Virus record (IMG/VR): IMGVR_UViG_2740892233_000017
From: a virus
Lineage: Duplodnaviria; Heunggongvirae; Uroviricota; Caudoviricetes
DNA: 11,797 bases
Reading direction: 5' to 3' (one strand)
Shown here one piece after another: positions 3,001 through 6,000 of the stretch (the first letter of the stretch is position 1; every line of letters begins with the position of its first letter). Position numbers: made by a program.

Positions 3001-6000
3001 TACGTAGCAGGTCACCTATAATGTTGTGCTGCACTGGCTGCACTGGGGCGATATTTGGTTTTTTGTCCACTTCCCTTGCAACTGCCTGCCAGATGCCATT
3101 TTTTACAGTTACTACCCCCTGGTTTTTTAACTTCCATAGAGTGTCAATAACGTCATTCAAATCAATATTGAGACCTTTAGAAATACTTTCGGCTGATGCT
3201 TTTCCTAATTTGTTCAATTCTGTGAGCACTGCGTTCATTTTTTTCTCCTGATATTTTAATGTCGGTGGGGCTGTTATACGGTTAGTGAGGTGTCAGCTTC
3301 TTCTACCAGCTTTTCCAGTTCATCCAGCTTTCGGGAAAGAATTTCACCAAACAGATGAAGTTCTGCATCTGCTGTAATCGGGATTGGAACAAATCGTATT
3401 CCACTTCTGGCAAGTTGATTTGCGATTTCCAGACACTGCCTTAATTCAACTGGTGATGCCTTTGTCAACGTCGTTTTTTCGCTCATTGGTTTTCTCCAGA
3501 AATTTAACAATACCCGGAACCATCTCAATGGATGGTGTGCCGCATTGGTTACCCCATACATCAAATCCATGCGAGGTGTGGCGGGCGAACAGTTCTATCC
3601 GGGGAACATCGCCAAGAAGTTGCACAAGCTTTTCTCGAGCCATATCCGGCTTGCGGGAGTGATCAAGGCGCGGTGCAGTGAATGACTGGATTATTCCGGC
3701 GTTAATGCGTTCGGGCAGATTTCCTTTCACTGCAAAAAGGCAGTCTTCGCTGTTAGCGCGAGTGGTGCTACCCATACCCATGACCAGCTTGTCGGTCTGT
3801 CTTTTCCCGCATTTGTTCCAGGTTAATCCTTTCATCGTCACCAGACGAAAGCCCCACGCTTCTACAACCTTCAATGCTTCAAGTGGTTGTGTAGGCACCC
3901 ACCACATAGACAACAGGCAATTATCGGCTGCCAGTTCCCATACCGGGAGGCGGCAGATATCCAGAAGACTCATGACCGGATATTTAAAACTTGCACCGCG
4001 TTGACCATCGGTTGCTTTGTCGCGGAATGTCCAGGGGGGATCTGCGTAAATGAGGGTGTATTTTTTCGTCATAGCGCGTTTTCAAACTCATCAATGTAAA
4101 GTCCTGCTTTAATCAGTCGGCGACGGCGTTCGGCCTTTTGCACGTATTCCTCGCGACAGTTTTTTGCTGCGTGTTCACGGCTTCTGCGACTGAATGGAGG
4201 AACGGCATTGCGTGAGCGAGGTGTGTCACGACGAGGATTTGATTCGAGGGAGAAAAAGCGATCAACGATTCCGGTGTCTGTGGTGAATGGTTCTGAAGCC
4301 TTTATTTTCACAACCTTACTGCCCTTTGTCAGGCCGCGAGCTACCTTGTTGAACTCGCAAAGTGAAACACCAAATTTCTCTGCTATTTCACTGCCAGTAA
4401 CAGGACGACCACGAGACTGAATCATCCAGGTGACGCGTTCTTTTAACCCACGGAAGGCACCGGGCCTTCCAGAACGCCTGTAGAAAGCGATCTGTTTCAA
4501 ATTTTTGTCTCCAGATATGAAAACCCCGACGGGATGTCGGGGATGGTAGGGGAAGTTACAGGCTTAACGAGAAGCCTTTTCGGGAATTTCGATCTGACAA
4601 TCTTGAAATATCCTGTAGCGTGCGGCGCATTTCTTCCGTCAGATGCTTGAAGGCGTTAAATTCAGCGACAGCGGCGTCAACGTTATAGCCTTTGCTGTGT
4701 AGCTCATTGAGGATGCGCATAGTTGGGCTTGGCATGTCGAAGAGCACAGAAACGTCCAGGTTAAGAGTTTTTCGATCAACATAGCTCATCATGGAGTAGG
4801 GGTGGTGCTCTGAAAACCACGATAGAGGGTAGTTGATGTTCATTGGTGCAGGTAAAAGGCTCTGGCGAAGTTTCTTTTCGCACTCGATGAAGTATCGGCG
4901 GATCTGGCGGCCTTTTTCGTTACGCTCAACCATCGCCAGTTCTTTGGCTGTGTCGAGAGTTAGGTGGTAGTCCTTGCTACGGCGATCACCTCCTCGCCCT
5001 TTGGTTTGCCCATTTTGGCAAATCAAAATATAGTCCTGGCTTTCAATGAATCCATATTCAGCAATGCGTTCTTTAACCCAGTGCGCGAACATTCTGCCCA
5101 CACCAAGAAAAGAGTGTAGATCACGAGCGTTAACTAGAAGAATTGTTTCGTTGTCGATAGTGCCGTTGAATACGGGGATGAGTTGACTGGTCATGATGAC
5201 CTCCTTTGAAGTTTTAGTTAGCAATCACCAGTTAGTGGCTGGTGATCGGGTGTCAACTAGAGCCTTCAAAGATGCTCCGGGCATATTCCCCTTGCGGGTA
5301 TTGTATTACGCCTCTCCACCCGACCTTTGTACGGATGTGACTATGCCAAATTGCAGGCATAAAAAAGCCGCAAAGCTATCGGGTGCGGATGACCGCTTTG
5401 AAGTTCTAGTGCGGTCAGTATGCGATAGCTCTGGCGGATTTGTCAAATCATGTAGGCCTTATCTTGCTGTAAGCCGCGCCATTCGGGCTTTTCCCCAGAT
5501 TTGGGGGAAACTATCTGCGAAGTATTCACCTTTGACGGCAAGTTGCAGGTTAGCCACGGTTAACCTCCTGCGGCGGTTCTGGTAGCGGCATCCAGTGTGT
5601 TACCTGCTCAACACCATTGCCCGGCTTAATCGTTGCTTCTCCTCGCCGAAAGGTGCTTCCGGTATAGCGTGCGGAGCATATTAGCGGCTCAACCAGATCA
5701 CTATCGAAATTCACCGAAATAAGTACGTTCTGATTCTTTTTCGGCATTCGCTCACTACAGCTTATCCAACTATCCGGAGTTACCGGATAGTTGCCCGATA
5801 GTGCATTCTGCTCCAGTGATGCTTTTACAAACCACGCTGCCTGAACTATAACGCCATGAATCCAGCGCAAATCAGCATCGCGATCTTTCTTTTTCATCTT
5901 TTCGCCACTTAAGGCCTTGCTTATGTGGCTGCGTACCAGGTCTTCATGTAATTCCTTCGCCTCCTCAATGGTGAAACCACCAGGCAGAAGAGCCGGAGTT

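Follow-up and report, generated by a model that had tools for sequence, protein, structure and literature searches.

Introduction

What does a phage gain from a small adenine methyltransferase that is encoded directly behind a helix-turn-helix (HTH) protein and has no restriction enzyme beside it? The question is raised by a 1.4-kb region of IMG/VR record IMGVR_UViG_2740892233_000017, a Caudoviricetes sequence of 11,797 nucleotides (nt), the whole of which is called the window below. The region holds three open reading frames (ORFs), coding for a 143-amino acid (aa) HTH protein, a 208-aa methylase of the MT-A70 family, and a 70-aa protein. The original prediction, made from the sequence alone, was of an orphan methylase, possibly for anti-restriction self-protection, with the HTH protein as controller or specificity factor. 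We find that the methylase and the HTH protein are the two-subunit adenine methyltransferase of Shiga toxin (Stx)-converting phages; this identity is certain, and the system has been known since 2023 (Gong, Chakraborty & Koudelka, Nucleic Acids Research 2023, PMC10810198). The region as a whole is probably explained by that enzyme, followed by a paralog of the phage lambda protein Orf63. As a gene system it contributes nothing that was not already in that publication; comparison with related loci bears on whether the substrate is DNA or ribosomal RNA (rRNA).

Identity of the methyltransferase locus

Stx2a phage P13374, from the O104:H4 outbreak of 2011, matches the 1.4-kb region base for base (100% identity), and the region recurs at 95-100% identity in 191 phage records, every one of them an Stx-converting phage or a relative of such phages. 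Aligned with phiPA8 (KP682374), the methylase is identical to M.EcoPA8orf6770P (M.ECPA8_3172P, gp5) at 207 of 208 residues, the HTH protein to gp6 (PNB-2) at 143 of 143, and the 70-aa Orf63-like ORF to its counterpart at 66 of 67. The gene order gp6-gp5, the overlaps, and the rho-independent terminator upstream of gp6 are also shared; TCCCCTACCATCCCCGACATCCCGTCGGGGTTTTCATATCTG (positions 4556..4515) is letter for letter the terminator quoted in PMC10810198. The sequence identities, taken together with the identical terminator, thus make the region the published phiPA8 system.

In phiPA8, the fifth gene (MT-A70, with the DPPW motif) and the sixth gene directly upstream of it (PNB-2, a predicted winged-helix protein) are co-transcribed. 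During purification PNB-2 stays with the methylase, to which it crosslinks 1:1, and this co-purification is lost upon deletion of the methylase gene. The methylase alone is weak on DNA or RNA, and the complex with PNB-2 favors 16S rRNA. Loss of the methylase leads to less spontaneous phage release and less killing of eukaryotic cells; where IS629 interrupts the methylase gene of a phage, the plasmid-borne methylase restores spontaneous induction and amoeba killing, but a DPPW-to-APPA mutant does not (all PMC10810198). A follow-up preprint (10.1101/2023.09.20.558713) gives deletion phenotypes of both subunits, their sequential deletion causing progressive loss, and reports protection of translation extracts against Stx as well as nanopore signals that change at 16S positions 832, 1098, 1100, 1132, and 1190. 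The physical partnership of PNB-2 and the methylase has therefore been shown experimentally by others, and our comparative data are compatible with it.

A second name for the enzyme follows by elimination. O104:H4 strains carry the methylase gene at 100% identity, C227-11 has exactly one copy, and the only methylases of the O104:H4 Stx phage are the 208-aa MT-A70 protein and the EcoGIII methylase, so the ORF would correspond to M.EcoGV, of which the window methylase is, by inference, an allele. Two other enzymes were considered and ruled out: M.EcoGIX is plasmid-borne, and M.EcoGII appears in PMC6602927 as a separate, non-specific enzyme.

The MT-A70 catalytic subunit

Classification with hidden Markov models bore out the prediction of an MT-A70 methylase with a DPPW motif. 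The PF05063 profile was matched over all of its 172 positions (1-172), within 176 residues of the methylase, at 79 bits (cutoff 23.9; E=5e-22), and was the sole Pfam match; neither the phage Dam (PF05869) nor the D12 Dam (PF02086) profile was matched, and these two families have no sequence relationship to the methylase although they fill its genomic slot in other phages. The protein also matches phrog_359 (E=8e-117), aligning to positions 118-324 only of that 329-position profile, and PADLOC MTase_II (E=2e-86). Family matches of this strength mean that the genes are real and exclude chance ORFs. The DPPW motif lies near the N-terminus, in keeping with the permuted motif order of beta-class N6-adenine methyltransferases; it aligns with that of Tetrahymena MTA1 and is conserved in 21-25 family members.

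The conserved core spans residues 1-177, ending near WGNQC, and is followed by a variable tail of 31 residues. From its sequence, the 208-aa protein appears to be a minimal MT-A70 catalytic core, with DPPW and the elements for binding S-adenosylmethionine (SAM) and without a target-recognition domain. Its nearest solved relatives are ciliate MTA1 (7F4L, 7F4R, 7YI8; E~1e-12) and METTL3 (4e-5); these relationships rest on sequence matches, the AlphaFold2 model of the methylase being of low confidence (predicted local distance difference test, pLDDT, 54.7). The last 27 residues of the methylase were suggested as the docking site for PNB-2 (PMC10810198). The tail is, however, the least conserved part of the protein and differs wholly from one to the other of the two clades of MT-A70 found paired with PNB-2, and the suggestion is accordingly not favored by our data. 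Codon 55 (3908-3910) specifies Ser in the window and in O104:H4, within an LLAMWW motif, and Ala in phiPA8 and at least 90% of the family. Natural fusions of PNB-2 to MT-A70, looked for because phrog_359 extends well N-terminal of the part that the methylase matches, were not found: the longer homologues have C-terminal extensions, are fusions to PerC or other upstream ORFs, or, in one case (P0050), are a frameshift chimera.

The winged-helix accessory subunit

The 143-aa arginine-rich ORF was also as described, with ~21 Arg (~15%) counted by direct reading. PNB-2 matches phrog_1680 over its full length (E=3e-79); the Pfam scan gave a weak match to HTH_11, a winged-helix family, and none to HTH_3/Xre, and no NCBIfam model matched PNB-2, the methylase, or the 70-aa protein. 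The gene begins with TTG, and the 25 N-terminal residues that depend on this start are kept both in homologues that are 50-60% identical and in remote relatives, so the long form is real; the RefSeq annotation of phage P13374 (118 aa, ATG start) is too short.

In the AlphaFold2 model of PNB-2 (17-sequence alignment, pLDDT 66.7), residues ~19-85 fold as a winged helix, residues 86-104 are a disordered, basic linker rich in Arg and Pro, and residues 105-131 make up a long C-terminal helix (RRRRLIKAGLYIDEFE). This helix bears the motif that is best conserved in the family, A-x-RR-x-RLI-x-x-GLYIDE. A Foldseek search of the PDB with this model found generic winged-helix proteins only (TFE-alpha, MarR, ArsR; best E=0.017). 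We suggest that the winged helix and the basic linker supply nucleic-acid binding to the holoenzyme and that PNB-2 docks on the methylase through its conserved C-terminal helix. PNB-2 would be translated just upstream from its weak TTG start, with the ATGA overlap coupling translation into the methylase gene. That overlap lies where the original prediction placed it, but overlaps of 4 nt between stop and start are usual between nearly all genes in these early operons, and thus ATGA by itself says little on functional coupling.

Distribution of PNB-2 and of the methylase

For comparison, 99 PNB-2 loci were collected and supplemented by exact-protein look-ups, the IMG/VR loci being the best-scoring 80 of several hundred; seeds checked against Pfam and PHROGs served to class the downstream genes. 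PNB-2 belongs to a tiny family: 65 clusters came from a word-indexed search, every one of them from Enterobacteriaceae, and 61 from an exhaustive profile search against 1.84 billion representatives. The MT-A70 clade dwarfs it, with 1235 clusters at E<=1e-5 across Enterobacterales and 514 phage records, many Vibrio phages among them.

PNB-2 homologues occupy a fixed place in lambdoid prophages, after exo (YqaJ), whatever comes downstream. In 65 of the 70 dereplicated loci that have at least 2.5 kb of downstream sequence, the same strand carries a gene for DNA modification within 3 kb. The first such gene codes for an MT-A70 protein in 36 loci, a PF05869 phage Dam in nine, a C5/D12 fusion methylase in six, a DndB-like (DGQHR) protein, then followed by a methylase, in five, a DpdA-like protein (phrog_887, a homologue of queuine-tRNA-ribosyltransferase) in four, an N6_N4 methylase and a phrog_757 methylase in two each, and a D12 Dam in one. 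In a sample of species-representative genomes, MT-A70 was present in 3 of 19 loci and PF05869 Dam in 7 of 19. Often two or three cassettes stand in a row, the series usually ending at a TraR/DksA zinc-finger gene. The segment after exo/PNB-2 is thus a hot spot of interchangeable DNA-modification cassettes, an observation that is new here.

Pairing of PNB-2 with MT-A70 extends beyond the Stx phages. A divergent PNB-2 clade (54% identical) precedes an MT-A70 clade that is ~45% identical to the window methylase and has a 24-aa insertion; the two genes are often joined by the same -4 overlap (~30 dereplicated loci). Because the pairing recurs between diverged partners, it lends some support to a real partnership. 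Diverged pairs were found in stx-free prophages of Enterobacter, Klebsiella, Raoultella, and Pseudenterobacter and in E. coli phage HK639. Among 5426 complete E. coli genomes, the methylase allele is present in 208 and PNB-2 in 137, and the two adjoin in 132; 132 of the 137 Stx-type PNB-2 genes (96%) therefore adjoin the methylase, but these copies are near-identical and not independent.

Other observations weigh against an obligate pair. PNB-2 adjoins the methylase allele in only 132 of the 208 E. coli genomes that have it, and MT-A70 proteins closer to that of the window than the divergent clade occur without PNB-2 in E. coli (83%), Klebsiella (78%), and Salmonella (73%), as does the MT-A70 gene of the O157:H7 SS52 Stx2a prophage (97.9% nucleotide identity). 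PNB-2 homologues also precede phage Dam, D12 Dam, N6_N4, C5, or DpdA-like genes, or no modification gene at all, and four remote PNB-2 relatives have no recognizable methylase neighbor. In a control anchored on exo (YqaJ), 48 of the 50 loci that have PNB-2 carried a modification gene, as did all 11 that lack it; the methylase slot is thus independent of PNB-2.

Two further loci deserve mention. One of the remote PNB-2 relatives (P0187; locus L129, 3501-3914) lies in an early region that includes Tad2-like and Acb2/Tad1-hairpin anti-defense genes and no recognizable methylase. In Enterobacter phage Tyrion (L136), a gene for a 75-aa winged HTH (wHTH) protein at 2284-2511 overlaps the start of an MT-A70 gene that is 72% identical to that of the window. 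This wHTH protein was considered as a PNB-2 homologue, but no relation is detectable; it may be a second, independent pairing of a small wHTH protein with MT-A70.

Restriction partner, role of PNB-2, and substrate

That the methylase has no adjacent endonuclease held up: none was found in the ORFs between 1939 and 6682 with Pfam, PHROGs, NCBIfam, or PADLOC. The alternative, that the methylase belongs to a complete restriction-modification system with an overlooked endonuclease, could draw on two facts, the HNH ORF at 8231-8686 (minus strand; PF01844, with weak PtuB-like PADLOC matches) and the restriction endonuclease carried by phage P13374. The HNH protein is, however, of a small phage type, encoded past a scaffold gap and not contiguous with the cassette in any complete genome. 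The original prediction had placed it in another cassette 4 kb away; the ORF is there, but its physical linkage to the methylase cassette is not established. In the identical phage P13374, the sole endonuclease (ORF30) adjoins its own 1470-nt methylase (ORF31) beside cI, ~11 kb away, the two forming the EcoGIII CTGCAG system of this phage type (PMC6602927). More than 100 related loci had no endonuclease domain in the operon around the methylase. The alternative is effectively refuted, and the methylase appears to be a solitary enzyme without a restriction partner, as predicted. As to the HTH protein, a role in specificity agrees with the 1:1 complex and the altered substrate preference (PMC10810198). 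That of a controller is unsupported because PNB-2, with 143 aa, a winged helix, and a long C-terminal helix, is unlike the ~80-aa Xre-type controller (C) proteins, and because there is no endonuclease to control. PNB-2 might still be mainly a transcriptional regulator or another factor of the early operon, its adjacency to the methylase being positional and the complex incidental or secondary. The NCBI annotation ("regulator"), the constancy of its position after exo, the occurrence of modification genes regardless of it, the remote members without a methylase neighbor (one of them among Tad2/Acb2-like anti-defense genes), and a generic fold like that of MarR, ArsR, and TFE all agree with such a role. 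We nevertheless consider it unlikely, in view of a co-purification that needs the methylase gene, 1:1 crosslinking, and a PNB-2-dependent change in substrate preference (PMC10810198), of the progressive loss of phenotype on stepwise deletion of both genes (10.1101/2023.09.20.558713), and of the 96% of Stx-type PNB-2 genes that adjoin the methylase, though those copies are near-identical.

The substrate is less easily settled. The holoenzyme favored RNA over DNA by >13-fold, its activity depended on the RNA source, 16S rRNA being preferred, and its resemblance to METTL3/14 was also used as an argument for rRNA (PMC10810198). Weighing against rRNA is that the evidence consists of a SAM-consumption assay and nanopore signals, the modified nucleoside not having been chemically identified, as the authors concede for the modified base; that the nearest solved relative is the ciliate DNA N6-methyladenine (6mA) methylase MTA1, ahead of METTL3; and that M.EcoGV, in the result of Fang et al. 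(2012) as it is cited in PMC10810198, methylates GATC in DNA when overexpressed without PNB-2 and is entered in PMC6602927 as a Dam homologue with GATC specificity. Furthermore, p32 of Serratia phage vB_SspM_BZS1 (BZS1), an MT-A70 protein without a partner, is a GATC-specific DNA methylase, which in a dam- host made plasmid DNA MboI-resistant and DpnI-sensitive (PMC7556043). p32 is 38% identical to the window methylase and 75% identical to HK639_35, which in the stx-free E. coli phage HK639 is encoded two genes downstream of the PNB-2 homologue HK639_37 (annotated "regulator", 55% identical). The enzyme could thus be primarily an orphan Dam-like (GATC) DNA methyltransferase, its rRNA activity being secondary or an in-vitro property and PNB-2 a DNA-binding helper or dispensable; we regard this as possible rather than probable. 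The targets would, just as tentatively, be phage and/or host DNA, methylated for protection from restriction sensitive to N6-methylated adenine (m6A) or for epigenetic effects. Apart from the enzymes just named, this reading has in its favor the slot after PNB-2, which holds bona fide DNA-modification genes in 65 of 70 loci, often followed by a second DNA methylase, and the PADLOC class (Type II MTase). The purified enzyme was, on the other hand, weak on DNA, unmethylated GATC DNA included, and its holoenzyme prefers RNA (PMC10810198), the equivalence of slots is positional evidence only, and GATC methylation adds little protection in E. coli hosts because these already have Dam. It would be more surprising still, and we think it improbable, if PNB-2 were a general accessory, adaptor, or local regulator for the modification hot spot, serving any downstream enzyme, with the Stx-phage enzyme a partner-assisted GATC methylase and rRNA an off-target or secondary substrate; in a weaker version, the holoenzyme could be truly dual-substrate, acting on DNA and rRNA. 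Either 16S rRNA or GATC DNA, or both, may be the substrate that matters in vivo, and the comparative data neither confirm nor exclude a preference for rRNA.

We retain the published two-subunit methyltransferase as the explanation of the locus, with qualifications. The MT-A70 gene would be a mobile cassette in the DNA-modification slot of the early-left operon; if so, GATC methylation of DNA is probably ancestral for this enzyme clade and may still be real. The enzyme was stated to be uniquely encoded by Stx phages (10.1101/2023.09.20.558713), which holds only for the near-identical allele pair. The nature of the slot, the close relatives without PNB-2, and the divergent pairs in stx-free prophages argue against uniqueness to Stx phages and against evolution of the enzyme to protect ribosomes from Stx, and the published rRNA-only reading needs qualifying. 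Self-protection against restriction, as a possible role, differs from the published one, in which methylation of 16S rRNA raises spontaneous phage and Stx production. The enzyme pair bears on virulence, being experimentally tied to the spontaneous release of phage and Shiga toxin by Stx-producing E. coli; the phage of the 2011 O104:H4 outbreak is among its carriers, and the methylase allele is found in ~4% of complete E. coli genomes (208/5426).

The Orf63-like ORF

The 70-aa ORF overlaps the 3' end of the methylase gene by exactly 41 nt (3446-3486), in agreement with the ~41 nt first given. Its product matches PF07131 (DUF1382) at 97.8 bits (cutoff 27; E=4e-28) and the lambda Orf63 structure 8DSB over residues 8-60 (E=3.6e-11), and it is a paralog of lambda Orf63, the dimeric, pro-lytic DUF1382 protein of the exo-xis region (PMC10869804). 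A second, diverged Orf63-like gene (gp06) is known from Stx phage phi24B (PMC8614690). A DUF1382 gene also follows MT-A70 genes that lack PNB-2; the 70-aa ORF is a matter of local synteny, and its membership of the methylase system is unsupported.

Prophage setting and neighboring genes

The window is the left end of a lambdoid prophage inserted at wrbA (Table 1). It contains two runs of exactly 10 N each, at 6747-6756 and 10028-10037, and is thus a scaffold. Its first 6746 positions (1-6746) match O104:H4 chromosomes, with their O104:H4-type wrbA prophages, at 100% identity, but complete E. coli genomes carry at most 68% of the window at one place. Because of the gap at 6747-6756 and this want of contiguity, linkage of the right-hand genes (toxin-antitoxin pair, HNH, Ea22-like) to the methylase cassette is not established.

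Table 1. Positions of the features discussed, numbered from the first nucleotide of the window.
Feature	Position	Strand	Remarks
wrbA	1-579	minus	Pfam, PHROGs
Integrase	576-1910	minus	Pfam, PHROGs
Excisionase	1939-2238	minus	Pfam, PHROGs
Orf63-like gene (DUF1382), 70 aa	3274..3486	minus	ATG 3486, GGAG 7 nt upstream
MT-A70 family N6-adenine methyltransferase, catalytic subunit, 208 aa	3446..4072	minus	ATG start 4072-4070
DPPW catalytic/SAM motif codons, residues 11-14	4031..4042	minus	Invariant or nearly so across the family
ATGA stop/start overlap of PNB-2 and methylase genes	4069..4072	minus	TGA 4071-4069, ATG 4072-4070; from the sequence
PNB-2 (EcoPA8orf6775P) gene, 143 aa	4069..4500	minus	TTG start at 4500
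GGAG ribosome-binding site	4508..4511	minus	8 nt before the TTG start; direct sequence reading
Intrinsic terminator	4524..4542	minus	7-bp GC-rich stem, 5-nt loop, T-tract; terminator scan; between the Ant and PNB-2 genes
AntA-domain antirepressor (Ant)	4556-5224	minus	Directly upstream of the terminator

The terminator ends only ~24 nt before the TTG with which PNB-2 starts. A stationary-phase promoter was reported for gp6-gp5 (PMC10810198); a sigma-70 scan of the minus strand at 4500-4700, including the space between the terminator and the PNB-2 start, found no promoter-like site. The C-terminal ~90 residues of the upstream Ant protein are identical to those of phiPA8 gp7 ("PNB-1") and its N-terminal domain differs, making it a domain-swapped mosaic.

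To the right of the first gap, a ParD antitoxin gene (7060-7380) and a ParE toxin gene (7386-7685; Pfam E=2e-7 and 5e-10, respectively) lie on the plus strand amid an early-left region that is otherwise on the minus strand. The ORFs at 8231-8686 and 10132-10485, both on the minus strand, share a leader of ~30 residues (MSQLLNCI.TW.GR.S.HCTIKLIRIRK.DMA) and then diverge, which suggests a repeated junction segment; their true starts are probably internal Met codons. GATC occurs 29 times in the window against ~45 expected, but the window is too small for anything to be read into this.

Comparison with known systems

The phiPA8 holoenzyme locus is the closest parallel and has the gene order, overlaps, and terminator of the window. 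The window departs from it in having Ser55 for Ala in the methylase, in an upstream Ant gene that shares only its C-terminal ~90 residues with gp7/PNB-1, and in its prophage site, wrbA. The small ORF that follows likewise resembles lambda Orf63 in its size and its exo-xis/early-left location; it differs in being a diverged second copy that starts inside the methylase gene.

Among DNA methylases, BZS1 p32 and M.EfaBMDam of Tn1549 (PMC7556043), both specific for GATC, belong to the same Pfam family as the window methylase and share its N-terminal DPPW and approximate size. p32 is, in addition, similarly encoded in a phage early region near an integrase gene, solitary and without an endonuclease; unlike the window methylase, it has a 24-aa insertion, acts alone on GATC DNA, and has no PNB-2 homologue nearby.

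The ciliate complex MTA1c resembles the window pair in that an MT-A70 core with no DNA-binding domain of its own needs small HTH-type accessory subunits to engage its substrate (PMC9174199, PMC9852454), and MTA1 with p1/p2 may serve as a functional analogy for an MT-A70 core plus a small HTH partner, one that acts on DNA. It is, however, a eukaryotic complex of four subunits (MTA1/MTA9, p1/p2; 7F4L, 7YI8) that includes an inactive MT-A70 paralog, p1 and p2 are homeobox-like and not homologues of PNB-2, and its target is ApT in duplex DNA. METTL3-METTL14 likewise shares the MT-A70 fold, DPPW, and a catalytic subunit that needs its partner for RNA binding, but it is remoter (E~4e-5), and its partner is a degenerate MT-A70 paralog rather than a winged-helix protein.

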